Source of the DNA: a virus
Strand: one strand, 5' to 3'
Length of the DNA stretch: 41,135 bases
UHGV virus genome: UHGV-0094207
The first letter of the stretch is position 1; every line of letters starts with the position of its first letter. A program made the position numbers and the translations under genes. Under the pieces are notes generated by a model. The model had not been told where the DNA came from, did not search any database, and saw only the letters and a list, made by a program, of their open reading frames with translations. Shown in pieces: positions 50-40,416 of the stretch.

Positions 50-1363
50 TTAACTTACTGATTTTAATAATCCTCCCGTACTGCTCTCGTGGCTATGGGG
101 CATCAATGGGGCAAAATCTGCCAGCTTCTGATTGAGCATTGCGATCTGCTCTGCGCTGCTGTCAGCCATCCATGCACCGTAAACATTGAACACCATCTGC
201 GCGCTCGCATGCCCCATCTGACTGGCAATAAAACTCGGGTTTGCACCAGCAGATAATGACCAGCACGCATAAGTATGTCGTGACTGGTACGCCTTTCTGT
301 GTCTGATCCCCGCGCGCTTTAGTGCCGCTTCCCAGGAGTCGCCTACTGAATCGACCCGGTAGATAAATCCGACCTGCTTACTGCGTCTGACCACATGCGG
401 GTTAAAGACGAATGTACACTCATGGTTCACCGAACGGCCATACTCACGTAACTGAACTTCAATGTGATGTTGCCTGCCCAGCCTTGTCATTTCAGCCTGA
501 TTTTTCAGGATACTGATTGCGGGCTGGATAAGATGCACCACTCGATCTGTGCTTGCCTCGGTTTTCGGTAGAGTGAACTCACCAAGTTTCGTATAATTAC
601 GCCTGACGGTAATTGTTCCCGCCTTCAGATCGATATCTTCCCAGGCCAGGGAGACCAGTTCCCCGTGACGCATTCCTGTGTACACTGCTAATGACCACAG
701 GTTTTTAGTCTGCTGATGCCGGCATGCATCTATCAGGCGAATAAATTCATCACGAGAAAGAGGATCTGGTTCTGCCCTGGCTTTTTTCAGAGGCTTAATT
801 CCCTCGAATGGGTTCACCTCTAAGTAACCGTGATCCGCAGCAAACTGAAACATTCCGGCCATTGTCGTCATGTAATAGTTCACAGTAACAACGCTTCGCC
901 CTTTTGCCGGGAATTTGTTTTTCGTCGGATTCTGGTAACCAGTTAGCAAATCTTTCCTGAGATACAGCAATTCCTCTTTGGTTACTGCTGACACCAGGCG
1001 ATTACCTCCGAGCCTCGGCACCATATTCCTTGCGACAGACTCATAGCGATTGAATGCGTTCGCGCAGATTTCCATCCGTTTCAGATCCAGCCACTTTTCT
1101 TCAAGTTCTTTTACTGTAATGTCTTTTTTACTTACACCAAAAGCCTTGAGGTTAGGGGAGTCAGGAAACTGGGTTGCATAATCAAAGGTTCCTGTGCGGA
1201 TGGCAAAACATACTGATGTCCGCAGTTCCCCGGCTATCTTCCTGTTCTTAGAGGTGTCAGGGACACCGAGACTTTCCCTGACACGCTTACCTTTAAAATT
1301 AAACCAGATGCGTAATGTGCCACCGTGGTTTTCGACGCCTGTTGGATATGTGACTTTATCCAT
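50..1363 (-). CDS. int: Tyrosine-type phage integrase with N-terminal arm-binding domain
   Basis: 437 aa. N-terminal 'YPTGVENHGGTLRIWFNFKGKRVRESLG' arm-type domain; C-terminal region with 'TGMRHGEL', 'HTYA' and R/H/Y residues typical of tyrosine recombinases; sits at the prophage edge next to xis. Confidence 0.9.
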   Translation of the reverse strand: MDKVTYPTGVENHGGTLRIWFNFKGKRVRESLGVPDTSKNRKIAGELRTSVCFAIRTGTFDYATQFPDSPNLKAFGVSKKDITVKELEEKWLDLKRMEICANAFNRYESVARNMVPRLGGNRLVSAVTKEELLYLRKDLLTGYQNPTKNKFPAKGRSVVTVNYYMTTMAGMFQFAADHGYLEVNPFEGIKPLKKARAEPDPLSRDEFIRLIDACRHQQTKNLWSLAVYTGMRHGELVSLAWEDIDLKAGTITVRRNYTKLGEFTLPKTEASTDRVVHLIQPAISILKNQAEMTRLGRQHHIEVQLREYGRSVNHECTFVFNPHVVRRSKQVGFIYRVDSVGDSWEAALKRAGIRHRKAYQSRHTYACWSLSAGANPSFIASQMGHASAQMVFNVYGAWMADSSAEQIAMLNQKLADFAPLMPHSHESSTGGLLKSVS

Positions 1364-3896: not shown

Positions 3897-4468
3897 TGGG
3901 CTGCCTCCTGGCGAAGAATTTCAGCAAAGACTTTCAACTCGTAGATATCCCTGCGAATAGAATCCCGAACTGCACCAATAGCAAAAGTGTCAGGGTGCAT
4001 GCCGTCTAATTGCTGCTGTTTAACCTCAATCATGCGCTCCACACCCTGAGCCTGCACTTCAGCCTGGAAAGCTTGATATGCTGGAATCTGCAACACAGCC
4101 AGTGAGCGAATCATCTTCTGAACTTCTGACGGGCACTGTTCGTAATGGTCGTCGGTGATGAATACCGCCTCGTTGTGAATTTTGTCCACAGCGCTTAATT
4201 CCGCCGCCAGCTTCCTACACTTGCTCTCGGCGTTAGCGAGCTGTACTGCCATGTCTGTGAGCTTCAGTTCAAGATTGTGAATAGTCGCGTCTGCTGCCCG
4301 GAACTCGCGCTGGGATTCCGTTAAATTTGAGCATGCGTTCTGAATTGAGTAGGCAAAAATGGCAGTATCACGATCATCTGATTCTTCAGCTTTAACCTGC
4401 AACTGAACCGCCAGGCTGAAGAGATCAGCAATTTGATTTTCTGTCATACGGTTATTGATAGTTTGCAT
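3893..4468 (-). CDS. Hypothetical coiled-coil protein
   Basis: Start chosen at 'MQTINN' (AGGT about 9 nt upstream); the longest ORF-track form (to 4549) overlaps the ParB-like gene by about 100 nt. Confidence 0.4.
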   Translation of the reverse strand: MQTINNRMTENQIADLFSLAVQLQVKAEESDDRDTAIFAYSIQNACSNLTESQREFRAADATIHNLELKLTDMAVQLANAESKCRKLAAELSAVDKIHNEAVFITDDHYEQCPSEVQKMIRSLAVLQIPAYQAFQAEVQAQGVERMIEVKQQQLDGMHPDTFAIGAVRDSIRRDIYELKVFAEILRQEAAQ

Positions 4469-5492
4469 TGGTATGTACCTGCTGAAGTTTGTGTTGTTTA
4501 ACGAAGTGGGCCACTGCTTTTGACTGGCTGGCGATAATTTTTCTGTCACCTAGGTCGAGCGTGACGTTCTTACCGCGATAAATTATTGCCGAGCCGATTT
4601 CCTTACCGTCCAGCTTCACATACAGCAATTTCCCGATAATCTCTGTCGTAGGGATTGGCTGTGAAAGGCGATAGGTTTCGCGAGCTTCAGCAATGGTTTT
4701 ATGTTCGTCGATTATCGACAGGGCTTCAGCCAGTGCAGTGCCTTGCAAAGTGAACACGCCTTCATCGCTGATTGTCGCCATGGCCATCAGTTCGACGAAG
4801 CGGCGAGCACTTTTAATGTTGAGTTCAGGAGCGATAGAACTGCGCGTAACCTTTGTTTTCCCCTGGGCGGCGGCTACGGCTTTATCGTGCTGGAGAACTT
4901 CACCAGCCTGTTCACCAAACTCGCGAACGCGGTCAACAGCAACATCAACAGACACGGCACCAGATTTAACTTCCTGCTGAACGTCATAATTAGCGGTACT
5001 CAGAGTGAGCAACTTCTCAACGGTCGCTACAGACTTATTGACCAGCTTTGCAATCTCGCTGGTGGTCTGATTGAAAGCGTTATGAAGCTCCTGAATAACA
5101 GCAGCCTGTTCAATATCGGAAAGGGGGAGTTGGTTATTACTGGTCATGATGCGAGCCAGACGCTGCACATCGTTACCGTTAAACGGCATGATATGAATAC
5201 GGTCTACTGGCTTACCAGCTTCAGCACAACGCGCATAGCAACGGCGACGGCGGTGGCCTTCAACAACCCACACCCCACCTTCATCACGTGCGATAACCTC
5301 CAGCGGAGGAACGGTGCCACCGTTCATCAGATAGTTAAACAGGTCATCATCTGCCTGGCGAGTGCGTTCGTCGTCTTCACGCTTGTTGAAACCTTCACGC
5401 ACGTAGATATGTTCAAGGCTGATAAACATCCCGGTATCGGTGCGCTTGATGGTCCCATCACGTGACATTTGTTTGAATGAGTTAGCGGCCAT
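4452..5492 (-). CDS. ParB N-terminal-domain (ParB/Srx-like nuclease) protein with HTH
   Basis: 346 aa. 'VVEGHRRRR' arginine-rich ParB-type motif followed by an HTH-like segment 'LPLSDIEQAAVIQELHNAFNQTTSEIAKLVNKSVATVEKLL'; no ParA partner is present. Confidence 0.6.
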   Translation of the reverse strand: MAANSFKQMSRDGTIKRTDTGMFISLEHIYVREGFNKREDDERTRQADDDLFNYLMNGGTVPPLEVIARDEGGVWVVEGHRRRRCYARCAEAGKPVDRIHIMPFNGNDVQRLARIMTSNNQLPLSDIEQAAVIQELHNAFNQTTSEIAKLVNKSVATVEKLLTLSTANYDVQQEVKSGAVSVDVAVDRVREFGEQAGEVLQHDKAVAAAQGKTKVTRSSIAPELNIKSARRFVELMAMATISDEGVFTLQGTALAEALSIIDEHKTIAEARETYRLSQPIPTTEIIGKLLYVKLDGKEIGSAIIYRGKNVTLDLGDRKIIASQSKAVAHFVKQHKLQQVHTNANYQ

Positions 5493-9499: not shown

Positions 9500-10505
9500 A
9501 ATCGTTCAATCACTGTCGGGGCAAAGGAATTGCATCACCATTCCGGTCCCGTACCTAGATTATTTCTCCGGCGATCAGCAGGCGCATGCTTTGGGTGCTG
9601 TGCTAAACCAGCTTGTGTTCTGGTCCGGTAAATCAGACCTGAATGATGGCTGGTTTTACAAAGAACACAGTGAGCTGGCGGCAGAGATTCGCGGCGTGAG
9701 TGAAGATCAGGTGCAGCGTCTGGTAAACAAGATTTGTACCCGATGGTTACCAGGGGTTGTTGAGAAGGCCCAGCGACAGGTAAACGGCACTAAAAAGACG
9801 CATTACCGTATCAATGGCGAAGCTCTAATCAACGTTTTATTCCCGGTAACGCTGGATTCCGCAGAATCGCGGAACGGGAAACGTGAAGTCGCGGAACCCA
9901 TTCCGCAGAATCACGGAACCGAAAACGTAGAACCGCGGAACCCTAACCGCGAAGTCGCGGAACCTATTCTCTATACAGATCATTACTCAGATCACCACAA
10001 ACAGATCAGTAACCCTTCTTGTCCGGAAGCTTCGCAACCGGACGCTGAAAGTTCATCTCCTGTTGAACAGTTTCTTGCTAAACATCCTGAAGCAGTGACC
10101 TGGAATGTACCGAAGCGGCAGTGGGGCAGTCAGGATGATTTGACTTGTGCGGAATACCTATGGGTAAAAATCATCGCGATGTACGAGCAGGCCGCTGAAA
10201 GTGACGGTGAAGTAGTCCGACCTAAAGAGCCTAATTGGGCATCCTGGGCAAACGAAGTGCGCCTGATGGTGGCGCAGGACGGCAGAACGCATAAGCAAAT
10301 TTGCGCACTCTTCAAACGAGCTAATCAGGATTCCTTCTGGTGCAAAAACGTCCTCAGCCCTTCAAAACTTCGCGAAAAGTGGGACGAATTAAGTCTGAAG
10401 CTTTCCGTGTCCATGAAACAGCCTACAGGTGATTCACCAGTAGCACGGGCCAGTTATCAGACCGTTGATTACTCACTGCCAGAAAATTCGGGGTTCCGCT
10501 CATGA
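9483..10505 (+). CDS. Replication initiator (lambda O-like) containing the iteron origin
   Basis: 340 aa. N-terminal 'NQLVFWSGKSDLNDGWFYKEHSELAAEI' resembles the O-protein N-domain; a central repetitive linker 'REVAEPIPQNHGTENVEPRNPNREVAEPI' is encoded by the iterons. Confidence 0.65.
   Translation: MSQIFEIVQSLSGQRNCITIPVPYLDYFSGDQQAHALGAVLNQLVFWSGKSDLNDGWFYKEHSELAAEIRGVSEDQVQRLVNKICTRWLPGVVEKAQRQVNGTKKTHYRINGEALINVLFPVTLDSAESRNGKREVAEPIPQNHGTENVEPRNPNREVAEPILYTDHYSDHHKQISNPSCPEASQPDAESSSPVEQFLAKHPEAVTWNVPKRQWGSQDDLTCAEYLWVKIIAMYEQAAESDGEVVRPKEPNWASWANEVRLMVAQDGRTHKQICALFKRANQDSFWCKNVLSPSKLREKWDELSLKLSVSMKQPTGDSPVARASYQTVDYSLPENSGFRS
9856..9970. repeat. Candidate replication-origin iterons
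   Basis: Two 44-bp tandem copies (attccgcagaatc[g/a]cggaac...cgcggaaccc) plus a partial third; six CGCGGAAC-like cores in total. Confidence 0.6.
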
Positions 10506-11380
10506 TGCCAAATAAATATTGCCAGGCGCTGGCAGAACTGCGCAGTAAACCAGCTCACGAATTGAAAGAAGTTGGAGATCAGTGGAGGACACCGGATCTG
10601 CTTTTCTGGGGGATCAACGCGTTATTTGGCCCATTAGTCCTGGACTTGTTCGCTGACGACGACAACGCGAAGTGCCCGGCATGGTACACCGCCGAAGATA
10701 ACGCGCTGACACAGAACTGGTCTGAACGTCTGGATGAACTGGGCGGCGCGGCGTTTGCCAACCCTCCATATAGCCGCTCGCAGTATCACGACAAGCAGGC
10801 GATCACGGGTATGACACACATCATGAATCACACCATGGACATGCGTGAAAGAGGTGGTCGCTATATTTACCTGGTGAAGTCTGCCACAAGTGAAACATGG
10901 TGGCCGGAAGATGCCGATCACATCATGTTTATTCGTGGTCGTATTGGGTTCGATCTGCCTGTGTGGTTTGTACCTGCTGACGAAAAACAGAAACCCACCA
11001 GCGCGTTTTTTGCCGGTGCCATAGCTGTATTCGACAAGTCATGGCGTGGTGAGCGGTTCAGCTATATCAACCGCACAGAACTGGAGGCAAAAGGTCGGGC
11101 ATTTATGGCGCTGGCTCAATTCGCTGTTGGTAAAGAGCAAACCATTGCAGTGCGGACAGCCCAGGAACCTGTAATGCCATTAGAAACTGAGTCACGAATC
11201 TGGCCTCTAGAGGTTGGTCTGGTGTTTAACCAGGTGGAAGGCGTTGACGTATTGAGCGAGGCTCAGCAGAACAAGCTGAAAGCCAACATCAATCAACTCT
11301 GGCTGGAACGAACGGCCACCAGCGAAATCATTACTGTTGCTTCTGAACTTGTTCGCAATATGCGGGGAGAGATCGCGTGA
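10502..11380 (+). CDS. Phage Dam-type DNA N6-adenine methyltransferase
   Basis: 292 aa. 'DQWRTPDLLF' and the catalytic 'FANPPYS' (NPPY) motif. Confidence 0.7.
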   Translation: MMPNKYCQALAELRSKPAHELKEVGDQWRTPDLLFWGINALFGPLVLDLFADDDNAKCPAWYTAEDNALTQNWSERLDELGGAAFANPPYSRSQYHDKQAITGMTHIMNHTMDMRERGGRYIYLVKSATSETWWPEDADHIMFIRGRIGFDLPVWFVPADEKQKPTSAFFAGAIAVFDKSWRGERFSYINRTELEAKGRAFMALAQFAVGKEQTIAVRTAQEPVMPLETESRIWPLEVGLVFNQVEGVDVLSEAQQNKLKANINQLWLERTATSEIITVASELVRNMRGEIA

Positions 11381-13455: not shown

Positions 13456-14166
13456 GTGTATGGAGCGCAAAGAAGCATGAATCAACAAGACCTGAATTTT
13501 GTCAGAATAGAATTGCGCCGCGCGCTACCTGACCTCTCTGGGGGAACAAAAGGGCAGCTTGAGGCTTTCAGTGAACACCCACCAGCAGATAAAAATGCCA
13601 CCCCGCGCCGTGGAATTCATCTCGTCGAACTCGAAGGAGATAAGGGGCCACGCTTTGTTAACTCGCTTTCCGCGCCACTGTATGTGCTGGAAACACGCAG
13701 CCGCCGTAGGCCAATGCCGCCGATAAAAGATGCGGAATTTGAGTCAGCGCCGTGGCGTAGGGCAGTGTCCGCGCTTAGTGGATACCAGCAGGCCTGGTTG
13801 CGGTACTGTTACGGTTTTGACCTTAGCTATAAGCACCAGGTGATGATGTGTGAATACGTCTGGAAAACTTATCAGAAATGCCTGGGTGATAATTCCCTTC
13901 AGGAGCGCGTAGTAAAGAAACTGATTGGCCTGGTATGGCTGGCAGGGCAGGAAATTGCCGCAACCAGAAATAATGAAACCTATAAAGACTATGCTGGTGC
14001 AGCGTTGGCCCGCATGGTTAGCGTTGACCGTTCGACATGGTTGCGTGTCTATTCAGGGCACTGGGCTGGGTTAAAGGCCGCTTTTACCCAGCTTGATGAA
14101 TCTGCGCTGGCCATGGCTCTTGAATACTATGAGGAAGAAGACGCCCTCAAAGTGGCAGAAATGTGA
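13456..14166 (+). CDS. Late-gene antiterminator Q
   Basis: 236 aa in the canonical position before the lysis cassette; GTG start in the ORF track, ATG 'MNQQD' at 13477 is an alternative. Confidence 0.65.
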   Translation: MYGAQRSMNQQDLNFVRIELRRALPDLSGGTKGQLEAFSEHPPADKNATPRRGIHLVELEGDKGPRFVNSLSAPLYVLETRSRRRPMPPIKDAEFESAPWRRAVSALSGYQQAWLRYCYGFDLSYKHQVMMCEYVWKTYQKCLGDNSLQERVVKKLIGLVWLAGQEIAATRNNETYKDYAGAALARMVSVDRSTWLRVYSGHWAGLKAAFTQLDESALAMALEYYEEEDALKVAEM

Positions 14167-14607: not shown

Positions 14608-14642
14608 TTCACTCTCTAGTAAAACGCGGGACATAATCTATA

Positions 14643-14671
14643 GGCTGCCATTTGGCGGCCTTTTCTATTTC
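14643..14671 (+). terminator. Rho-independent terminator
   Basis: ggctgcc-attt-ggcggcc hairpin (one G-U pair) followed by ttttctatttc. Confidence 0.5.
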
Positions 14672-14772: not shown

Positions 14773-15051
14773 ATGACCAGAATGAGCACCATTTACAGCA
14801 GACTTTCATATGGAACAGGAACCACGCTGACCGGCTGCGGTGTATCAGCGAAGGCATACGCCGAAACAGCTAAAACAGCAAAAGAGGTGTCCTGGATGTT
14901 GGCCGACAGAATTGCAGGGTTAAGCCTGAGCGACTGGGCAATTATTGTCGGTATCGCATGCACCGTTATTACCTGTGCAGTGAACTGGTATTTCCGCTGG
15001 AAAGAACGGGAGGATCGTCGCAATGGCTATGCCACAAAAGCTGAAGAATAA
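14773..15051 (+). CDS. Holin with dual-start motif
   Basis: 92 aa. Starts 'MTRM' (two Met separated by a basic residue); hydrophobic 'WAIIVGIACTVITCAVNWYF' segment then a charged tail 'RWKEREDRR'. Confidence 0.65.
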   Translation: MTRMSTIYSRLSYGTGTTLTGCGVSAKAYAETAKTAKEVSWMLADRIAGLSLSDWAIIVGIACTVITCAVNWYFRWKEREDRRNGYATKAEE

Positions 15052-15571
15052 ACTGAGCGCAGCTGTCGTTGGGTTAATTCTTGCCGGGGCTTCCGCACCC
15101 GTAATTCTCGATCAGTTTCTGGATGAGAAAGAGGGTAACAGCACAACAGCGTACAAGGACGGCTCTGGTATATGGACCATTTGTCGTGGCGCAACGATGG
15201 TTGATGGTAAGCCAGTAGTTCAGGGCATGAAGCTGCCTGCTGAGAAATGCGCTCAGGTAAATGCTATTGAACGCGATAAAGCGCTGGCGTGGGTTGACCG
15301 AAATATCAAAGTACCACTGACGGAACCACAGAAAGCGGGTATCGCTTCTTTCTGCCCATATAACATCGGCCCCGGAAAATGTTTCCCGTCTACGTTCTAT
15401 AAGCGAATTAATGCTGGCGACCGTAAAGGAGCCTGTGAAGCGATCCGCTGGTGGATAAAAGACGGTGGCCGCGATTGTCGCCTGACCAAAGGGCAGAAGA
15501 ATGGTTGTTATGGGCAGGTAGAAAGGCGAGACCAGGAAAGCGCGCTGGCTTGCTGGGGGATAGACCAGTGA
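15023..15571 (+). CDS. SAR endolysin (T4-lysozyme-like)
   Basis: 182 aa. N-terminal signal-anchor-like 'LSAAVVGLILAGASAPVIL'; catalytic spacing 'EGNSTTAYKDGSGIWT'. Confidence 0.8.
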   Translation: MAMPQKLKNKLSAAVVGLILAGASAPVILDQFLDEKEGNSTTAYKDGSGIWTICRGATMVDGKPVVQGMKLPAEKCAQVNAIERDKALAWVDRNIKVPLTEPQKAGIASFCPYNIGPGKCFPSTFYKRINAGDRKGACEAIRWWIKDGGRDCRLTKGQKNGCYGQVERRDQESALACWGIDQ

Positions 15572-16092
15572 ACAGAAGCCTCGTTATTGTTGGGATGGCA
15601 GCAATCATCTTCATCGCGGTGCTCTGTGTACTACTGGCGCGCAGCAATGCAGCGTTGACCACGTCAGAGAGTGACAACCGGATACTGCGCAACGATAACG
15701 CACTGCAGGCAACGGTGATAACTACCCAGGCGTTCAACTTCAACCGGTTTAACCAGGTAGCGGAGAACGCCAGTCGCCTGAACTCGCTGATTGATGCCGG
15801 AACCGAAAAGACCGTTATCGAATACCGGGAGATTCTTCGCCGTGAAAAAACCTGTGATCTGCCTGTTCCTGCTAATGTCGCTGGTGGGCTGCTCAACTAC
15901 GCGAACCGTTTACGTGCCAGCGCAATGCACCCCGATACCGGGGACACTGACGCAGCCGATGATAGTACCGCTGCCGCCAGCTCAATAACCTATTGTCAGG
16001 CCGTTCTCTGGATTCAATCATTACTTGCAGAGATAGAGAAGGGTAACAACCAACTGGCAGGGATTAGGGATATTGAGGAAGGGAGACATTAG
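15568..16092 (+). CDS. Rz-like i-spanin
   Basis: GTG start overlapping the endolysin stop; N-terminal TM 'LVIVGMAAIIFIAVLCVLL' then a periplasmic coiled-coil region. Confidence 0.65.
   Translation: MNRSLVIVGMAAIIFIAVLCVLLARSNAALTTSESDNRILRNDNALQATVITTQAFNFNRFNQVAENASRLNSLIDAGTEKTVIEYREILRREKTCDLPVPANVAGGLLNYANRLRASAMHPDTGDTDAADDSTAAASSITYCQAVLWIQSLLAEIEKGNNQLAGIRDIEEGRH
15842..15988 (+). CDS. Rz1-like o-spanin lipoprotein embedded in Rz (+1 frame)
   Basis: 'KKPVICLFLLMSLVGC' signal peptide with lipobox; Pro-rich mature part; entirely inside the Rz gene. The ORF-track start is 15791. Confidence 0.55.
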   Translation: MKKPVICLFLLMSLVGCSTTRTVYVPAQCTPIPGTLTQPMIVPLPPAQ

Positions 16093-16128
16093 AAATAGGG
16101 CCACTTAAAGGTAGCCCAAACGATTCGA

Positions 16129-16386
16129 TTAAGATTTAGAAAGTAGGGCTACAACTCTTTTATGTAACTCTTCTGCATAACCTTCATTTACTGGGTTTTC
16201 AAACTCCACAGGCGGCGCTGATTTAAAAGCTTTATCGTAGCTATCGCCAAGCATACCAGGCTGTTTGGCAAGGGAGTTCCAAGCTGTGGATATCGTGGTA
16301 ATAGCAATTCTTGCTGCATGCTGATCTAAAAGTAGCTCTTCAATAGTTTTTTCGAGTTCATCAATGCGTTTCTGCAGATCTGTCAT
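16129..16386 (-). CDS. Hypothetical small coiled-coil protein, antisense to the late operon
   Basis: 85 aa on the opposite strand between Rz and the glycosyltransferase gene; visibly AT-rich. Confidence 0.45.
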   Translation of the reverse strand: MTDLQKRIDELEKTIEELLLDQHAARIAITTISTAWNSLAKQPGMLGDSYDKAFKSAPPVEFENPVNEGYAEELHKRVVALLSKS

Positions 16387-16494
16387 GAAATTACCTCTAA
16401 AGGGTTGTGTAAATGAGCTGCGATTATATCATTTTGGTGTCAGCAAAAGTGATGTCCAGATAGGAGTCCTGAACCATTTTATTTTGGAGAAATT

Positions 16495-17952
16495 ATGCAG
16501 GTCACTATCGATGGTGTTCCATACGCGCCTGTCTGCAATTCGGTGTCACGCATAGGAATAGCAATCACAACGCATAATCGCCCTGACGTATTGAAGCGGA
16601 CACTGGCGCAGCATCATCAATTTTTACCGTCCGGCGCGCTCGTGGTTGTCATAGATGATGGTTCAAAACCTGCCGCAGTCGTTCCCGACGGCGTGCAGCT
16701 GCTTCGCAATGAAACATCCCTCGGCATTGTGGCCTCGAAAAACCGAAGCCTCGAAGCGCTGGTGGACGCCGGATGTGAGCATCTCTTCCTGTGGGATGAT
16801 GACGCATGGCCGGTTGCCGATAACTGGCACCTGCCTTACATCGAATCACCTGAGTCACACCTGGCTTACCAGTTTCTCGATCTGGCTGGTCCACGAAAGA
16901 TAAACGATATGACCGTCCTGCACCAGGATGATAAGCATATCGCTTACACCGGGCAGCGCGGTGTGATGCTGTACTACCACCGCAGCGCCATTGAGAAGGT
17001 TGGCGGATTCGATCCGGTATACGGTCGAGGCATGTATGAGCATCCTGATTTGGCGCTTCGGATTTATAACGCTGGCTTAACGTCCTGGGCGTTTGCTGAT
17101 GTGGTTGGCTCTGAAAAGCTGATTCACTCAATGGATGAATACGAAGAGGGCGCGCGCAGCATACCGAGGCCTGAACGTGAAGCGCTCTATAAAAAGAACG
17201 CTGTAATTTACGGGCAGCGCCGGGATTCAGGATATACAGGCTATGCCGAATATCGATCTCAGCGCGACGTGGTAATCACAACGTTGCTTACCAGCCAGCC
17301 AGACCCGCAGCGCGGTACGAAAATGGCGGCCGTATCAGACATGCTGACCAGGTGGGCTGCCTCGCTTCGGAATTGTGGCCGTATTGCGCTGGTGGATGAG
17401 CTGCAGACGGCATCGGCAGACGTTGAGTTGTATCGCGTCCCTGACGTGAAGATGAATGTCTACTTCCGGCGCTGGCTGCATATCTGGCAGCACCTGCGCG
17501 ATCACCCTGAATACCGGTTCGTCTGGTGTACCGATGGTACCGATGTCGAAATGCTCCGCGCACCGTGGGAAGAAATGCAGCCCGGGAATGTTTACGTCGG
17601 TTCTGAACCGAAGATCTACGCCGACACCTGGGCGAAACAGAATCATCCTGAGCGTATCTATCAGGAATTCATTGAAGCGCACCGCGGCGATGTGATGCTT
17701 AATGCTGGTCTTCTGGGAGGCACCCGCGCTGATGTGATGGCGTTCGCTCATGGCATCATCCGTCTTTACTACCGGATCGAGAGTTATCGTTTCTGGAAGA
17801 AAGAACAGGCTGGCGCAGCGGTGGGTGACATGCTGGCGTTCGGTATCGTTGCGCAGTCATTCGCTGACAGGTTGGTCACCGGCCCTCTGGTACATACCGT
17901 TTTCAAAACTGATGGTATCGGTAAGGAGGCAGCATGGTGGAAACACAAGTGA
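16495..17952 (+). CDS. Two-domain glycosyltransferase (N-terminal GT2/GT-A domain plus a second GT-A-like C-terminal domain)
   Basis: 485 aa. N-terminal 'GIAITTHNRPDVLKRTL...VVVIDDGS...LWDDDAWP...GGFDPVYGRGMYEHPDLALR' are GT2 hallmarks; C-terminal half has 'RFVWCTDGTDVEM'. Confidence 0.6.
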   Translation: MQVTIDGVPYAPVCNSVSRIGIAITTHNRPDVLKRTLAQHHQFLPSGALVVVIDDGSKPAAVVPDGVQLLRNETSLGIVASKNRSLEALVDAGCEHLFLWDDDAWPVADNWHLPYIESPESHLAYQFLDLAGPRKINDMTVLHQDDKHIAYTGQRGVMLYYHRSAIEKVGGFDPVYGRGMYEHPDLALRIYNAGLTSWAFADVVGSEKLIHSMDEYEEGARSIPRPEREALYKKNAVIYGQRRDSGYTGYAEYRSQRDVVITTLLTSQPDPQRGTKMAAVSDMLTRWAASLRNCGRIALVDELQTASADVELYRVPDVKMNVYFRRWLHIWQHLRDHPEYRFVWCTDGTDVEMLRAPWEEMQPGNVYVGSEPKIYADTWAKQNHPERIYQEFIEAHRGDVMLNAGLLGGTRADVMAFAHGIIRLYYRIESYRFWKKEQAGAAVGDMLAFGIVAQSFADRLVTGPLVHTVFKTDGIGKEAAWWKHK

Positions 17953-18524
17953 AGTTTGTTGTGGTTGGCCATCATTCCCGTTACGCCTCAGCTGCATTGC
18001 TGGCTGGTGAACTTGGCGCGCACCTTCTTATCGATGAAGGGAATCACGGGGCTAACTGGAATCACCGGCGCGCTATCGAATGGGCTGCTGAGCAGCCTTG
18101 CCGGGTGGTGGTACTGGAAGACGACGCGCTGCCTGTACGTGGATTCAGAGACAAGCTTACGGGCTGGCTGGCTCGTTTCCCTGGCGACATGCTTAGTTTT
18201 TATCTGGGCACCGGGCGGCCACCGCAATACCAAATGCAGATAGCTGAACGCCTGATTAATGCGGATAAGGTGAGGTCTGACTTCATTATGCTGCAACGCC
18301 TGATACATGGCGTGTGCTACAGCATACCGCCTCAAAGCATCAGCCGTGTGCTGTCTCAATGGGACGGCAGTAAGCCTGCCGATTATGCCGTGGGCGATGC
18401 TTATGGTGGCGTTGTCGTCTATCCCTGTTGGTCGCTGGTGGACCACGCAGACGGCGAACCGGTTGAGCGTCACCCTGACTCAGCACCACGAACAGAACGC
18501 CGCCGGGCGTGGAGGTTAGCCTGA
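17934..18524 (+). CDS. Hypothetical protein, possible GT-A/GT25-like glycosyltransferase
   Basis: 196 aa; 'KFVVVGHHSRY...CRVVVLEDDALP' resembles the N-terminal strand and acidic motif of LPS-type glycosyltransferases; overlaps the upstream gene by 19 nt. Confidence 0.35.
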   Translation: MVETQVKFVVVGHHSRYASAALLAGELGAHLLIDEGNHGANWNHRRAIEWAAEQPCRVVVLEDDALPVRGFRDKLTGWLARFPGDMLSFYLGTGRPPQYQMQIAERLINADKVRSDFIMLQRLIHGVCYSIPPQSISRVLSQWDGSKPADYAVGDAYGGVVVYPCWSLVDHADGEPVERHPDSAPRTERRRAWRLA

Positions 18525-18874
18525 TGCCTGCGTTAATACCGAGAGCATGCCGCAAGCGTGGCTGCTCTGGCACAACCACTGAACGCTCAGGCTATTGTCC
18601 CAAGCACCTTAACGAAGGCTGGCAGCAGCATCAGCGAGGACAGAGCAGGCATCAGCGAGGTTATGGCAGCAAGTGGGACAGGCTGCGGCCAATCGTTCTC
18701 GACAGGGATAAACACCTTTGTCAGGAATGCCTGCGAAATGGAAGGTATACACCCGCTGAGACGGTGGACCACATCACCGCCAAAGCAAATGGGGGGACCG
18801 ATGACCTTTCCAACCTCGAAAGCCTCTGCAAGCCTTGCCACAGGGCGAAGACAGCAGTTGAAAGACTCAAATGA
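18524..18874 (+). CDS. HNH endonuclease (terminase-associated)
   Basis: Start ATG overlaps the upstream stop (TGATG). Cys/His pattern 'CRKRGC...CPKH...CQEC...VDHI...NLESLCKPCH'. Confidence 0.8.
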   Translation: MPALIPRACRKRGCSGTTTERSGYCPKHLNEGWQQHQRGQSRHQRGYGSKWDRLRPIVLDRDKHLCQECLRNGRYTPAETVDHITAKANGGTDDLSNLESLCKPCHRAKTAVERLK

Positions 18875-19031
18875 CATCAATTCTCATTTGAATCGACCGA
18901 GGGGGAGGGCGGGTTGAAAGTTCAGGAACGACGCGCCAAAGGACCGCCGCCTAACCTCTTTTCACATCGCCGCAGGTTAGAAAACTTTTTTATGGGGTCC
19001 CCCACTCGATGATTAATAGGAGTTTTCGATT

Positions 19032-19529
19032 ATGTCTGGACCACCGAAAACCCCGACCCATCTACGTTTGGTGAGGGGTAACCCATCAAAACGCCCGATT
19101 AATGAAAACGAACCAAAGCCAGCTGCAGGGGTACCCCCAACGCCGAAGCATTTCGACAAGCAGGGAAAATACTGGTTCAAGCGTATGGCTGAAGAGCTCG
19201 ATGCGCTTGGCGTCATGTCGCAGCTGGACGCGAGAGCGCTTGAGCTTTTGGTTGAGGTTTACACCGAGTACCGGCATCACTGCGATACTCTGGAGAGAGA
19301 AGGCTATACCTACGCCGTATATAGCGACGAAGAACCAGACGAAGGCAAAGAGCGAGAGATTCGCATGATCAAGGCTCACCCGGCGGCCATCATGAAAGCT
19401 GATGCCTGGAAACGTCTTCGCGCCATGCTCGGAGAGTTCGGTATGACGCCAGCCAGCCGCTCTAAAGTGAATGCAAAAGGTCCTGATGCGGTTGACCCGC
19501 TGACCGAGTTTATGAAAGCGAGGGATTAA
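19032..19529 (+). CDS. Terminase small subunit (P27-family type)
   Basis: 165 aa immediately upstream of the large terminase; 'TPTHLRLVRGNPSKRP...' N-terminus. Confidence 0.75.
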   Translation: MSGPPKTPTHLRLVRGNPSKRPINENEPKPAAGVPPTPKHFDKQGKYWFKRMAEELDALGVMSQLDARALELLVEVYTEYRHHCDTLEREGYTYAVYSDEEPDEGKEREIRMIKAHPAAIMKADAWKRLRAMLGEFGMTPASRSKVNAKGPDAVDPLTEFMKARD

Positions 19530-21265
19530 TGGCTAAGGTTGCAGAAGGCATCCGCTACGCCGAGAGGGTGGTGGCGGGGGAAATTATTGCCTGTGAGTAT
19601 GTGCGCCTTGCCTGTCAGCGTTTTCTTGACGATCTGGCCCACGGCGAAGAGCGCGGTATTTTCTTCAGTGAGCCGCGCGCGCAGCACATTCTGAATTTCT
19701 ATAATTTTGTCCCTCACGTCAAAGGCGCGCTGGCAGGCCAGCCTATTGAGCTGATGGACTGGCATGTTTTCATCCTGATTAATATTTTTGGTTTTGTTAT
19801 CCCGCTGGTTAACGAAGATACGGGGGAAAACGTCCTGCGTAACGACGGCAGCGGTCGACCGGTGATGGTTCGGCGTTTCCGTACAGCAGATGTTGAGGTG
19901 GCCCGTAAAAATGCCAAATCAACGCTTTGCTCCGGCGTAGGGCTGTATATGGCTGGTGCCGACGGCGAGGGAGGGGCGGAGGTTTATTCCGCTGCTACAA
20001 CCCGTGACCAGGCGAGAATTGTTTTTGAAGACGCGAAAAATATGGTCAAGAAGGCGAAAGCCACTCTTGGGCGGATCTTCGAATTCAACAAGCTCGCTAT
20101 CTACCAGGAGCAAACGGCCTCCAAATTCGAGCCATTATCATCAGATGCAAACAACCTCGACGGCCTGAACATCCACTGCGCCATCGTTGACGAGCTGCAT
20201 GCTCATAAAACGCGTGACGTCTGGGACGTTCTGGAGACGGCCACCGGCGCGCGCCTGCAATCTCTGCTTTTCGGTATCACCACCGCTGGTTTCAACAAAG
20301 AAGGTATCTGTTACGAATTGCGTGATTACGCCATCAAGGTCCTGCGCGGCCTGGTTAAAGACGATACGTTTTTTGCCATCATCTACACCTTAGATGAAGG
20401 TGACGATCCATTTGATGAAAAAGTCTGGCAGAAGGCCAATCCGGGGCTGGGTATCTGTAAGCGCTGGGATGACTTGCGGCGTCTGGCAAAAAAAGCGAAA
20501 GAGCAGGTTTCGGCCAGGATTAACTTTTTCACCAAGCACATGAATATCTGGGTTACGGCAGAGTCTGCCTGGATGGACATGATGAAATGGGAGAAATGCG
20601 AGTTTATCGCCCCGCAGCACGAACTTAAAACCTATCCCTCCTGGGTGGGCGTTGACCTTTCAAACAAAATTGATATCTGTGCGGCCGCTAAAGTCTGGCG
20701 CGCGCCAGGTGGCCACGTTCACGCGGATTTTAAATTCTGGCTTCCGGAAGGACGCCTTGAGAAATGTTCACGCCAGATGGCAGAGCTCTATCGTAAGTGG
20801 GCTGAGCTGGACAAGCTGATCCTTACCGACGGGGATGTAATCGACCATGCTCAGATTAAGGAAGAGCTGCAGGTGTGGGTTGCTGGCGAGAATCTGAAAG
20901 AAATTGGCTTCGATCCCTGGAGTGCTACGCAGTTCAGCCTTGCGCTGGCAGAAGAAGGGTTGCCACTGGTGGAGGTGCCGCAGACGGTTCGCAATTTCTC
21001 TGAGGCGATGAAAGAGGTCGAAGCACTGGTATATGGTGGCCGCTTCCATCACAGCGATCACCCGGTAATGAACTGGATGATGTCCAACGTAACCGTCAAA
21101 CCTGACAGGAACGAGAATATTTTCCCGAACAAGTCCACACCAGAGGCCAAGATTGATGGCCCGGCGGCATTGTTCACAGCAATGAGCCGCGTTCTGGTTA
21201 ACGGTGGCAACGACCAGCAGGATCTTTCCGGATTCTTCAATAATCCCATCATGGTAGGTTTCTGA
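19529..21265 (+). CDS. Terminase large subunit
   Basis: 578 aa with ATPase and nuclease regions, followed by the portal gene. Confidence 0.9.
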   Translation: MAKVAEGIRYAERVVAGEIIACEYVRLACQRFLDDLAHGEERGIFFSEPRAQHILNFYNFVPHVKGALAGQPIELMDWHVFILINIFGFVIPLVNEDTGENVLRNDGSGRPVMVRRFRTADVEVARKNAKSTLCSGVGLYMAGADGEGGAEVYSAATTRDQARIVFEDAKNMVKKAKATLGRIFEFNKLAIYQEQTASKFEPLSSDANNLDGLNIHCAIVDELHAHKTRDVWDVLETATGARLQSLLFGITTAGFNKEGICYELRDYAIKVLRGLVKDDTFFAIIYTLDEGDDPFDEKVWQKANPGLGICKRWDDLRRLAKKAKEQVSARINFFTKHMNIWVTAESAWMDMMKWEKCEFIAPQHELKTYPSWVGVDLSNKIDICAAAKVWRAPGGHVHADFKFWLPEGRLEKCSRQMAELYRKWAELDKLILTDGDVIDHAQIKEELQVWVAGENLKEIGFDPWSATQFSLALAEEGLPLVEVPQTVRNFSEAMKEVEALVYGGRFHHSDHPVMNWMMSNVTVKPDRNENIFPNKSTPEAKIDGPAALFTAMSRVLVNGGNDQQDLSGFFNNPIMVGF

Positions 21266-23440: not shown

Positions 23441-24652
23441 ATGTCTGAAGTAAACGATATTCTGAAAAAAGTCACCGCCAGCATTGAAGAGGCAACCGGC
23501 AAGTTCAACGCGAAAGCAGAAGAAGCAGTGAAGGAGGCGCAGAAGTCCGGCAAGCTTTCAGAAGAAACAAAGGCGGCCGTCGATAAAATGGCTTCTGAGT
23601 TCAACGCCCTGCGTGAGGCAGAAAAAACGTTGAAGGCAGCTATGGGAGAACTGGAGCAACATGTTGCCCAGATGCCGCTGGCAAACGCGAAGCATGTTGT
23701 GGAATCAATCGGCCAGCAGGTGATCTCTGCTGAAGCGCTGAAAACCTTTGCCTCCGGCGTGGAAGGTGGAAAACGTATCAGTATCCCGGTTAAGGCGGCA
23801 CTGACTTCTGCGGATGTGCTTGATGGTGTTGTCGAACCCCAGCGAATTCCTGGCATCGATACGGCACCAAAACAACGCCTGTTCATTCGCGATCTGATTG
23901 CTCCTGGCCGCACTTCCTCCCCGGCTATTTTCTGGGTGCAGCAGACGGGTTTTACCAATAACGCGAAAGTGGTTCCTGAGAATACGCAGAAACCCTACAG
24001 CGACATTGAGTTTACGCCGAAAATCACTGGCGTCAGCACCATCGCTCACCTGTTCAAAGCCTCCAAGCAGATCCTGGATGATTTCGCACAGCTGCAGTCA
24101 ACCGTTGATGCCGAAATGCGCTACGGACTGAAGTACGCGGAAGAGCAGGAAATTCTCTTCGGTGACGGCACCGGTGTGCATCTGCATGGCATCGTTCCTC
24201 AGGCGTCAGCGTTTAACCCGGCGTTTACTGTTGAACAGCAGAGCGGTATTGACGATCTGCGTCTGGCAATGCTGCAGGCACAGTTGGCGCGCTTCCCGGC
24301 ATCCGGCCACGTTCTTCACTTCATTGACTGGGCACGGATCGAGCTGACGAAAGATAGCCTGGGCCGCTACATCCTGGCTAACCCTGCAGCGCTGACTGGT
24401 CCGACGCTGTGGGGCTTGCCGGTTGTTGCCACGGAAGCGGCAGCCTTCCAGGGTAAATTCCTGACTGGTGCTTTCAACGCTGGCGCGCAAATCTTCGACC
24501 GCGAAGATGCGAACGTTGTTATCTCCACGGAGAACGCCGACGACTTCGAGAAAAACATGATCACCATCCGTTGCGAGGAACGTCTGGCGCTGGCCGTCAA
24601 ACGCCCTGAAGCATTTGTATACGGTGCATTCCGCACTGGCGCTGGTAGCTGA
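23441..24652 (+). CDS. Major capsid protein (HK97-fold)
   Basis: 403 aa after the protease; coiled-coil scaffold-like N-terminal delta domain. Confidence 0.85.
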   Translation: MSEVNDILKKVTASIEEATGKFNAKAEEAVKEAQKSGKLSEETKAAVDKMASEFNALREAEKTLKAAMGELEQHVAQMPLANAKHVVESIGQQVISAEALKTFASGVEGGKRISIPVKAALTSADVLDGVVEPQRIPGIDTAPKQRLFIRDLIAPGRTSSPAIFWVQQTGFTNNAKVVPENTQKPYSDIEFTPKITGVSTIAHLFKASKQILDDFAQLQSTVDAEMRYGLKYAEEQEILFGDGTGVHLHGIVPQASAFNPAFTVEQQSGIDDLRLAMLQAQLARFPASGHVLHFIDWARIELTKDSLGRYILANPAALTGPTLWGLPVVATEAAAFQGKFLTGAFNAGAQIFDREDANVVISTENADDFEKNMITIRCEERLALAVKRPEAFVYGAFRTGAGS

Positions 24653-26374: not shown

Positions 26375-26827
26375 ATGGCTGATAAAACTTCGCCAGAGTA
26401 CGCGATGCTGCCTGCTGGCACCGTCGTTATGTGGGGGGCTGCGGGCAGCAACGTAGCAACAATGAAACCACTCATTAACTGTAGAGCGCTGGGCGCTACA
26501 GGACAGACGGGCAGTTTTGTGGACTGCACTACGCTGATCGATACCAGTAAACAGTTTATCTCTGACCTGCCTGAAGGACCTGAAAAATCTCTGGGCTTTA
26601 TTGACGATCCAGCCAACCAGGACTTTGCTGATTTCCTCAACGCAGCAGAGAACCGGGAAACCGTACAGTTTTACGTTGAGTTGCCAAATGGTCGAACGGC
26701 GAACATGATTCTGGCCCTGTCTGGCTGGCAGATGAATGAAATTACTGCCCCGGCAAGTGAAGTCATTCAAATCACTGTTCAGGGAAAACAGAACAACATC
26801 ACCTGGGGTACCGCAGCTGGCAGCTGA
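26375..26827 (+). CDS. Major tail tube protein (lambda V-like)
   Basis: 150 aa followed by a strong terminator; position before the G/G-T chaperone pair. Confidence 0.7.
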   Translation: MADKTSPEYAMLPAGTVVMWGAAGSNVATMKPLINCRALGATGQTGSFVDCTTLIDTSKQFISDLPEGPEKSLGFIDDPANQDFADFLNAAENRETVQFYVELPNGRTANMILALSGWQMNEITAPASEVIQITVQGKQNNITWGTAAGS

Positions 26828-39781: not shown

Positions 39782-40024
39782 ATGATGCCACGACGCAGCG
39801 ATATTGAAATAGCCTGGTATGCTTCGATACAGCAGGAACCAAATGGCCGGAAGACCGTCACCACGCAACGGTTTGTCCAGGAACTGAGCAAGGTTAACTG
39901 GAACTGGACAATGAAGCAGGCCAACGAATGGATCGAGTGGTATGTGACAACCTTCCGCGATGTATCAACGCAGGAAGGGGAGAACCGTACCTTTCAGCTG
40001 TTCAATCCAAACGGAGGACTATAG
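39782..40024 (+). CDS. Hypothetical protein, first gene of the divergent SOS operon
   Basis: 81 aa; purine-rich RBS before 'MMPRRSD'; stop 2 nt before the UmuD'-like start. Confidence 0.45.
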   Translation: MMPRRSDIEIAWYASIQQEPNGRKTVTTQRFVQELSKVNWNWTMKQANEWIEWYVTTFRDVSTQEGENRTFQLFNPNGGL

Positions 40025-40026
40025 CC

Positions 40027-40416
40027 ATGGGCTTCCCTTCACCTGCCAGTGATTACGTTGAAACAAGGATCTCCCTCGATCAGCAGCTAATCAGCCAGTC
40101 CGCAGCGACTTATTTCATGCGGGCATCGCGTTCACATTTCAGGGAAGGGATAATCCAGGGGGCGCTGCTTGTTGTTGATGCGTCACTTTCTCCCTGTGAT
40201 GGCTCGCTGCTGATATGCGCGATAGACGGAGAATTCAGGATCAAGCGATATCGGACTCATCCTCAGCCCCACCTGGTTAATCTGGAGAACGGGAGAAGGG
40301 AGGCGCTGCCAGCAGATGATGACGGTTACAGTTCTGCACCCGCTATATTCGGGGTGATCACGTACATCATTAATGATGCCAGGAACGCGGAGTTTGATGA
40401 CTGCCCGGTGATGTAA
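40027..40416 (+). CDS. UmuD'-like S24-family protein lacking the N-terminal pro-segment
   Basis: Starts 'MGFPSPASDYVETRISLDQQLI', which matches UmuD directly after its Cys24-Gly25 cleavage site; conserved Lys in 'GEFRIKRY'; the Ser-region is altered ('ASRSHF'). Confidence 0.65.
   Translation: MGFPSPASDYVETRISLDQQLISQSAATYFMRASRSHFREGIIQGALLVVDASLSPCDGSLLICAIDGEFRIKRYRTHPQPHLVNLENGRREALPADDDGYSSAPAIFGVITYIINDARNAEFDDCPVM

Follow-up and report, generated by a model that had tools for sequence, protein, structure and literature searches.

The virus genome UHGV-0094207, a stretch of 41,135 nucleotides (nt) analysed here in full and called the window, is a complete HK97-like lambdoid prophage whose proteins have their nearest relatives in Citrobacter and Enterobacter. 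After its lysis genes and before its HNH and terminase genes, roughly 15 kilobases (kb) from int, lie two overlapping genes for putative glycosyltransferases (GTs) of 485 and 196 amino acids (aa), and Gly-Ser (GS) forms the C-terminus of both its major capsid and its major tail protein. The analyses described below make it likely that this GT pair, hereafter the cassette, O-glycosylates the C-terminal Ser of the capsid and tail-tube subunits in the cytoplasm. The features concerned are the following.

16495-17952, plus strand: 485-aa glycosyltransferase open reading frame (ORF), with GGAG 7 nt 5' of the ATG
16495-17256, plus strand: its N-terminal domain (aa 1-254), probably a GT-A domain of GT2/Glyco_transf_7C type, with DDG at 54-56, DDD at 101-103 and E182-H183
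17257-17952, plus strand: its C-terminal domain (aa 255-485), with D347-x-x-D350 and L402-N-A-G-x-x-G-G409
17934-18524, plus strand: 196-aa GT25-like glycosyltransferase ORF, with AAGGAGG ahead of its start
18524-18874, plus strand: HNH endonuclease, a packaging accessory of HK97 gp74 type (PF01844, E 1.5e-15)
18875-19031, no strand: 157-nt intergenic gap between the HNH and TerS genes, likely the cos region
23441-24652, plus strand: major capsid protein of the HK97 fold family, 403 aa, ending in FRTGAGS
26375-26827, plus strand: major tail (tube) protein, 150 aa, tube domain only, ending in WGTAAGS

The two GT ORFs share 19 nt (17934-17952), and the ATG of the HNH gene at 18524 has one base in common with the TGA of the 196-aa ORF at 18522-18524 (cc-TGATG-cc), with GGAGG ahead of it. 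Both overlaps agree with an earlier note made from the letters of this DNA, which also proposed that the pair is coupled to HNH and terminase; the TGATG junction upholds this for HNH, while there is no coupling to the terminase because the 157-nt gap parts HNH from TerS. The motifs that it had picked out are present in the translations as well: LVVVIDDGS (aa 49-57), LWDDDAW (99-105) and VGGFDP (169-174) in the 485-aa protein, and, as the VVLEDD-type motif of the 196-aa protein, VVVLEDDALP (58-67). Both ORFs are full length, with strong ribosome-binding sites and conserved catalytic motifs. Databases hold more than 800 homologues of the 485-aa protein and more than 1800 of the 196-aa protein, and the two match phrog_1579 (glycosyltransferase, E 2e-246) and phrog_854 (glucosyltransferase, E 9e-72), respectively. 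Judged by this conservation, both are real genes and not chance frames.

In the window, the last two codons of the capsid gene are those for Gly (24644-24646) and Ser (24647-24649), and the terminal Ser codon of the tail-tube gene is at 26822-26824. Only four of the 261 frames of at least 60 aa end in GS, and among these the capsid and tail-tube genes are the only real genes. In the Escherichia coli phage HK542, GS likewise closes just three of the 43 plus-strand genes, namely those for the capsid, the adaptor and the tail tube. The major tail protein of the window belongs to phrog_158 and matches only the N-terminal 158 of the 376 profile positions.

The association between the cassette and these termini was surveyed in three sets of IMG/VR loci, each comprising 80 loci with 10-kb flanks and built around the 196-aa gene, the HK97-type capsid gene or the HK97 gp12-type tail-tube gene. 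Deduplication reduced these 240 related viral loci to 189. The capsid ended in GS in 109 of 110 loci with the cassette and in one of 27 without it (Fisher 1e-25), and the tail tube in 94 of 100 with it and none of 42 without it (Fisher 6e-30). Both Fisher values overstate independence, given that the loci share ancestry and that tail-protein type was the criterion for picking one set. In the presence of the cassette, 16 distinct capsid and 17 distinct tail-tube C-terminal octamers end in GS, and the pattern is not confined to one clade. Apart from the terminal Ser, no hydroxyl residue is shared by all the cassette-linked tails (for example, RIRVQQGS and AVMAAGS). One further candidate, L159, a cassette-less locus with GS ends, was discarded as such: it is a defective prophage in which TerL is truncated and the HNH/TerS/GT region is missing, with the GS-ended genes remaining.

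Close relatives differ at precisely this site. Capsids 81-90% identical to that of the window end in FTAPAAGGGA or TVPAPAGA in loci lacking the cassette and in FSTGAGS in loci that have it, the difference being confined to the tail of the protein. Among tail tubes whose tube domains are 93% identical, those from loci without the cassette continue into an immunoglobulin (Ig)-like domain, as in HK97 gp12, and those from loci with it stop with GS at the domain boundary. The switch point in the tail-tube genes follows KGKPxxI(E/D)x (L005 6733-7437 compared with L021, L019 and L006). This alternation suggests that the tail tube is decorated on its surface either by a glycan or by the Ig-like domain, and the comparison as a whole leads us to predict that the acceptor is the C-terminal Ser of capsid and tail tube.

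Similar ends occur in phages with an enzyme like gp110 of mycobacteriophage Che8, to which the 196-aa protein is related (see below). The capsid (gp6) and tail tube (gp11) of Che8 end in NKTGS and YSDGS, and those of Gandalph have the same endings; the capsids of the unrelated phages Firecracker, Keelan and Sixama end in PLVGS, PHSGS and PAVGS. In Sixama, four consecutive structural proteins end in GS (L251, 11462-15279: capsid gp81, gp82, major tail gp83 and adaptor gp84), their genes lying a few kb upstream of the GT pair gp91/gp92. The head-tail adaptor of HK97 gp6 type ends in E(P/S)EEGS with or without the cassette (HK97, L005 5219-5545; HK542, L006 5170-5496; 88 IMG/VR loci), and it may be a third substrate.

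The enzymes themselves had to be assigned through their relatives. Pfam searches with the 196-aa protein of the window gave no match at E≤1, PF01755 (glycosyltransferase family 25, GT25) included, and sequence searches of the PDB with the 485-aa and 196-aa proteins found no solved structure; since the window proteins do poorly as queries against Pfam, their families were assigned from homologues and structure. An alignment of 85 sequences was compiled from enteric homologues of the 196-aa protein and relatives of Che8 gp110. Of these, 32 match PF01755 weakly (best E 1e-7), and many Che8 gp110 relatives carry a precomputed PF01755 annotation, making GT25 membership of the 196-aa protein an indirect one, through its homologues. 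In the same alignment, E62 and D64 of the L61-E-D-D64 motif are invariant and D63 is kept in at least 90% of the sequences; H171 and D173 of the H171-x-D173 motif are invariant too.

The AlphaFold2 model of the 196-aa protein is good (predicted local distance difference test score, pLDDT, 89.7; predicted template-modelling score, pTM, 0.87). Foldseek aligned it with POMGnT1, COLGALT1, mimivirus R699, LH3, ppGalNAc-T2 and C1GalT1 (E 8e-5 to 1e-3) at modest TM-scores of 0.45-0.59, COLGALT1 (9evk) and R699 (9dyt) being among the best matches, and a profile search of the PDB with the protein family returned mimivirus R655 (9crz) as its sole match. To judge from the model, the 196-aa protein is a GT-A enzyme with an EDD motif, so the doubt attached to the earlier note, that no GT-A fold or DxD motif might be found, falls away for this protein. 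Its structural neighbours include the protein-directed transferases COLGALT1, POMGnT1, ppGalNAc-T and LH3. Neither GT protein has a transmembrane segment (maximum 19-residue hydropathy 1.37 and 1.0). We predict that the 196-aa protein initiates glycosylation by linking a first sugar to the Ser at the C-terminus of virion proteins.

For the 485-aa protein of the window, Pfam GT2 (PF00535) aligned with residues 22-107 at 20.3 bits, below the cut-off of 23.3. Of 83 diverse homologues, 71 match PF00535 and 64 match Glyco_transf_7C (PF02709) at E≤0.1, the best of them above the cut-off, and all these matches fall in the N-terminal half. D55, N83, D103 and H183 are invariant in the N-terminal domain of the family, and its profile, run against the PDB, retrieved chondroitin polymerase, TagF, heparosan synthase, PglI, b4GalT7 and ppGalNAc-T. 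The GT2/GT-A assignment of this domain in the earlier note is thereby supported, as GT2/7C-like, and a role in glycan extension is predicted for it.

The earlier note had also seen a second GT-A-like domain in the C-terminal half; Pfam, PDB profile and hhalign searches matched this domain to no Pfam family or solved structure. Nor is it a copy of the N-terminal domain or of the gp110 family, two origins that we considered and rejected because hhalign showed no relation to either. A search of 1.8 billion cluster representatives at E≤1e-30 found at least 249 relatives of the 485-aa protein, nearly all of them full-length two-domain proteins, and in these at least 249 representatives the C-terminal domain is always fused to the N-terminal one. 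Its conserved D347-x-x-D350 follows a predicted β-strand. The AlphaFold2 model of the whole protein is poor (pLDDT 54) because only close homologues (77-97% identical) went into its alignment; it places alternating β and α elements in the C-terminal domain at low confidence. Foldseek with this low-confidence model returned GT-A enzymes throughout, with the two-domain polymerases PmHS2 and K4CP as the best matches, which is a weak hint. Given the poor model, a second GT-A fold in the C-terminal half, presumably a second transferase domain, is plausible only.

The same GT pair precedes HNH at the right genome end of HK542, lies between the lysis and HNH/terminase genes in an E. coli prophage, and is also found in ECP1, mEp390, Fostie, LMessi, Fraca and Cronobacter ENT39118. 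In all 80 homologous loci examined, the 196-aa gene lies beside packaging genes, and homologues occur in phage and prophage late regions and not in lipopolysaccharide (LPS) or capsule loci, which the earlier note had named as a possible main setting. The host distribution is uneven: megablast matched the cassette region in only 22 of 5426 complete E. coli genomes, and cassette homologues are abundant in Enterobacter, Citrobacter, Cronobacter and Klebsiella. A pair of identical lengths (485 and 196 aa, 45-60% identity) is present in KpSz_1, a 299-kb Serratia/Klebsiella jumbo phage (MN871448), as an isolated plus-strand islet among minus-strand genes, far from the structural genes (L254 18538-20597). 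Three of the 298 KpSz_1 ORFs of at least 100 aa end in GS, none of capsid size; the only annotated one encodes a 178-aa virion structural protein (phrog_2935, record 113779-114315) ending in DGFGS.

Translated searches of a phage collection were dominated by mycobacteriophages, which accounted for 662 of the 719 records matching the 196-aa protein (about 34% identity), 568 of the 612 matching the N-terminal domain of the 485-aa protein (47-50%) and 350 of the 383 matching its C-terminal domain (40-43%, to the C-terminal half of the GTs of cluster F mycobacteriophages). These matches follow the same gene order and are located close to the right-hand end of the genome. Che8 gp110 shares 35% identity with the 196-aa protein over 192 aa (E 2e-29), Firecracker gp36 shares 31% and Sixama gp92 34%. 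At its right end, Che8 carries gp108, gp109 and gp110 (glycosyltransferases), gp111 and gp112 (HNH), and its left end begins with the terminase. We had considered gp108 and gp109 as homologues of the 485-aa protein, to which they show no similarity; its true counterpart is of the gp101 type. Gandalph gp101 (cluster F, 479 aa) aligns with it end to end at 44% identity (E 2e-132), and is followed by a 70-aa ORF, the gp110-like gp103 (34%), the HNH gp104 (34%) and the genome end. BLASTP found no similarity between the packaging and structural proteins of Gandalph and those of the window. The same two-domain GT is present in about 350 other mycobacteriophage records, and our literature search found no report characterizing a Gandalph-type cassette variant.

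The window has the order GT, gp110-like GT, HNH, cos, TerS in common with HK542, Che8 and Gandalph. When Firecracker (cluster O) and the Gordonia phage Sixama are compared with Che8 and the window, the only GT that all four have is the gp110-like enzyme, and its partners differ. HNH accompanies the GT genes in enteric and mycobacterial phages alike and is itself outside the glycosylation chemistry. The linear records of HK542 and Che8 end just past the HNH gene and begin with TerS; if the cos-like gap of the window is likewise the genome end in packaged DNA, its GT genes would occupy the right end of the packaged chromosome, as they do in those two phages.

To our knowledge, phage virion glycosylation has so far been shown only for mycobacteriophages, the experimental cases reportedly being Che8, Corndog and Myrna, and the glycans are said to be O-linked. 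Passages in papers citing Freeman et al. 2023 state that mycobacteriophages modify capsid and tail-tube proteins with glycosyltransferases of their own. The passages concerned describe Che8 gp110 and Corndog gp38 as essential glycosyltransferases for capsid glycosylation (PMC12363180, citing Freeman 2023), attribute modification of capsid and tail tube to cluster O genes (PMC11600133), and place the glycans at the C-termini of the capsid and tail-tube subunits (PMC12619734; also PMC11600133).

The surroundings of the cassette bear on when it is expressed. The gene order in the window is integrase, early genes, Q-like antiterminator, lysis, HNH, TerS/TerL, portal, protease, capsid and tail, and the features relevant here are these.

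50-1363, minus strand: integrase
13456-14166: Q-like antiterminator gene (phrog_304, E 7e-72)
14608-14661, plus strand: downstream of the Q-like gene, promoter-like site with a terminator-like hairpin directly after it (consensus scan only)
14773-16092: lysis genes

The pair of sites at 14608-14661 is probably a late promoter/tR' arrangement like lambda PR'/tR', from which transcription would run through the lysis, GT, HNH and virion genes; a PR'/qut is annotated in the corresponding position of HK542. The consensus scan found no plus-strand terminator-like site at 14939-19600 and, immediately ahead of the GT genes, no promoter-like site on the plus strand. Since they have no promoter-like site of their own and no terminator-like site lies between lysis and terminase, we infer that the GT genes are transcribed as part of the late operon.

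In comparison with cassette-less relatives (L223, L232, L243 and L246), DNA similarity is lost in Rz at about 16064 and regained precisely from the HNH ATG (18524), which marks 16064-18524 as an exchange slot; in other phages the same slot holds different cargo. The GT genes thus lie in a variable slot outside the core late module, as the earlier note had it. Between Rz and the GT genes, the slot also contains an antisense 85-aa ORF (16129-16386, minus strand; phrog_16546, no function assigned). On that strand it is flanked by a promoter-like site (16458-16431) and a terminator-like hairpin (16117-16098) of its own, an arrangement reminiscent of a 'reverse moron'. Elsewhere, the prophage carries a DNA methyltransferase with a PAPS-reductase/ParB-like region (10502-11380, phrog_111/33262), a ParB-like protein on the minus strand (4452-5492, phrog_1033) and, near the right end, a UmuD-like protein (39928-40416, phrog_811).

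Together with the fold predicted for the 196-aa protein and the lack of membrane segments in either GT, these results suggest the following scheme. The late transcript would yield both GTs along with the structural proteins, and the two enzymes, soluble and cytoplasmic, would use host nucleotide sugars. The 196-aa enzyme would recognize the free C-terminal Gly-Ser of capsid and tail tube and O-link a first sugar to the terminal Ser; the two-domain 485-aa enzyme would then add one or two more. The finished particle would bear hundreds of short glycans on head and tail, those on the tube standing where cassette-less relatives have the Ig-like domain, and might gain surface shielding or adhesion from them. 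For the division of labour itself, with the 196-aa enzyme initiating and the 485-aa enzyme extending, the case is evenly balanced.

Besides the relatedness of the surveyed loci, several observations weigh against virion glycosylation by this pair. In the survey, locus L009 has the cassette and neither protein ends in GS (capsid VGKAP, Ig-domain tail tube), the capsids of L008 and L033 are not GS-ended despite the cassette, and six deduplicated cassette loci retain an Ig-domain tail tube. Conversely, HK97 has no cassette, yet its adaptor and its capsid, the latter identical to the HK542 capsid, still end in GS. Not every tag has Gly before the Ser: the tail tube of Firecracker (gp47, L252 70-885) ends in KGDS, and that of Keelan (gp43, L253 1347-1904) in EEPAS, with Ser kept and Gly not. 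The GT sequences of the window fall short of Pfam thresholds, and the C-terminal domain of the 485-aa protein has no sequence match among solved structures and only a low-confidence model. Our literature search found no report of a glycosylated virion of a Gram-negative phage, and little evidence of glycosylation is reportedly seen in the broader phage population.

Some of these observations can be accommodated. The cassette loci without GS on the capsid and/or tail tube (L009, L008, L033, L150/L166 and L214/L229/L231) are either mosaic mismatches or cases with other targets, and recent module exchange is the simplest explanation for the GS ends of HK97. We dropped a strict GS rule after the DS and AS ends of the Firecracker and Keelan tail tubes; because these end in GDS and PAS, the tag rule becomes a terminal Ser, usually after Gly, and the tag may be a small residue plus Ser-COOH instead of strict GS. 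Of the three roles that the earlier note had offered, virion glycosylation is favoured by homology, synteny and the co-variation with GS, and modification of the host envelope and another sugar-transfer function are disfavoured.

Among the alternatives, it is unlikely that the enzymes act during lytic growth on some other target (a host protein, a sensor or signal of a defence system, or a small molecule), the GS termini being linked to the cassette in another way. A GT-A fold does not reveal substrate specificity, L009, L008 and L033 do have the cassette without GS on capsid and/or tail tube, and in KpSz_1 the GT pair lies far from the structural genes and no capsid-size ORF ends in GS. Such a target would nevertheless have to be reconciled with homologous mycobacteriophage enzymes reported to act on capsid and tail tube and with a GS association that is very tight over many sequence types; in KpSz_1 itself, one of the three GS-ended ORFs is a virion structural protein.

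Lysogenic conversion, in which the enzymes would modify the LPS core, O-antigen or another envelope glycan and cause a Gtr-like serotype change or superinfection block, appears quite improbable. The idea draws on the name of PF01755, given for lipooligosaccharide/LPS glycosyltransferases and matched by 32 of the 85 homologues of the 196-aa protein, on the PHROGs category of both families ('moron, auxiliary metabolic gene and host takeover') and on the position of the genes in a slot that carries other cargo in other phages. Neither GT, though, has a transmembrane segment, no flippase or GtrA/B/C-like partner is found among the window proteins, and there is no nearby upstream promoter-like or downstream terminator-like site such as an autonomous moron would have. 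Coupling to HNH in the late operon would bring expression only shortly before lysis, the position beside packaging genes in 80 of 80 homologous loci points the same way, and the co-variation of capsid and tail-tube C-termini with the cassette would be left unexplained.

We think it very improbable that the cassette is vestigial or an idle passenger, that is, a set of intact genes without consequence for the virion. Mosaic exchange has uncoupled the parts in HK97 (GS ends without GTs) and in L009 (GTs without GS ends); the intact ORFs with their strong ribosome-binding sites and conserved catalytic motifs, the abundance of close homologues, the retention of family-invariant columns and the tag on both predicted substrates in the window all speak against idleness. 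Glycosylation of modified DNA bases as a protection against restriction, like that by the T4 alpha- and beta-glucosyltransferases or TET-associated glycosyltransferases (TAGTs), is scarcely credible: the GT genes adjoin DNA-packaging genes and 37 of the 83 diverse 485-aa homologues weakly match PF20691 (TAGT; best E 2.5e-5), but in ten inspected homologues these matches score below the gathering threshold and overlap the generic GT2 region of the N-terminal domain, a signal that we set aside as generic sub-threshold GT-A similarity, the window proteins scanned include an ordinary DNA methyltransferase only and no TET/JBP dioxygenase, dCMP/dUMP hydroxymethylase or base-hypermodification gene, and the mycobacteriophage homologues are assigned to protein glycosylation.

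Glycosylation of C-terminal Ser on virion proteins therefore remains the reading that we prefer, and it invites a broader one, for and against which we see about equal grounds: that the system is a portable cross-phylum module, consisting of a gp110-like protein O-glycosyltransferase and a minimal free C-terminal (Gly-)Ser tag on the virion proteins to be decorated. The GT-GT-HNH cassette would have passed between phages that infect Actinobacteria and phages that infect Enterobacteriaceae, the tag would have been gained or lost by capsid, tail-tube and in some cases adaptor proteins that are unrelated to one another, and the tail-tube glycan would be an evolutionary alternative to the Ig-like domain. 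If so, a substantial proportion of the HK97-like prophages of Enterobacter, Citrobacter, Cronobacter, Klebsiella and some E. coli make glycosylated particles, and the recurrent, previously unremarked alternation of Ig-like domain and GS stub on tail-tube proteins is accounted for. The machinery would be common in temperate enteric phages, including the culturable E. coli K-12 phages HK542, mEp390 and ECP1, which share the architecture of HK97, the best-studied capsid model; the enzymology of the machinery and its role, be it shielding from antibodies or capsid-sensing defence or adhesion to mucus or surfaces, would be testable in a tractable host. Surface glycans of gut phages would be relevant to phage immunogenicity and therapy. 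A two-residue tag and one small soluble enzyme could, moreover, glycosylate proteins in the E. coli cytoplasm, making the tag a candidate for glycoengineering.

Known systems resemble the cassette to different degrees. The Ig-like decoration domains of lambda gpV and HK97 gp12 occupy the same site as the GS tag, namely the tail surface at the C-terminus of the tube domain. Such a domain is a folded protein domain, whereas GS is a two-residue tag presumed to carry a glycan, and their functional equivalence is hypothetical. GtrABC of Shigella and Salmonella phages are likewise prophage-borne GTs of enteric bacteria with a GT2-type catalytic domain; they are, however, membrane proteins encoded beside int/att and expressed in the lysogen, in contrast to the GTs of the window, which are soluble, predicted to belong to the late operon and without a flippase partner.

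Among the enzymes, members of CAZy GT25/PF01755 (Lic2A/LgtB/LpsA, COLGALT1 and mimivirus R655/R699) are like the 196-aa protein in their GT-A fold, the position of the metal-binding (L)EDD motif and their small size, and COLGALT1 and the mimivirus enzymes also act on proteins. The 196-aa protein differs in that it does not itself match PF01755, and we know of no GT25 enzyme with a C-terminal Ser as acceptor. In the family of the 485-aa protein, the N-terminal domain shares the GT2 and 7C signature and the DxD and E-H motifs with K4CP, PmHS2 and ppGalNAc-T, and the two-domain layout of K4CP and PmHS2 appears to resemble that of the 485-aa protein; the similarity to all three is remote (E 1e-7 at best, N-terminal domain only), and the 485-aa protein has no lectin domain.

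The closest parallel is a kind of system already known from mycobacteriophages and apparently unreported for Gram-negative phages. With the system of Che8 (gp108-gp110), Corndog/Firecracker (gp33-gp36) and Myrna, the window shares the gp110-like GT25-type enzyme (31-35% identity), the partner GT gene or genes directly upstream of it, and capsid and tail tube ending in Ser, mostly Gly-Ser; with the cluster F mycobacteriophages, it shares the right-end placement before HNH, cos and terminase. It differs in being an HK97-like lambdoid prophage of a Gram-negative enteric host, with a two-domain 485-aa GT as partner and no O-methyltransferase, and in being known here from sequence alone. Gandalph differs from the window in the extra 70-aa ORF between its GT genes and in structural and packaging proteins without detectable similarity to those of the window, whereas its gp101-gp104 share the architecture of the window gene for gene, and its capsid and tail tube, too, end in GS.

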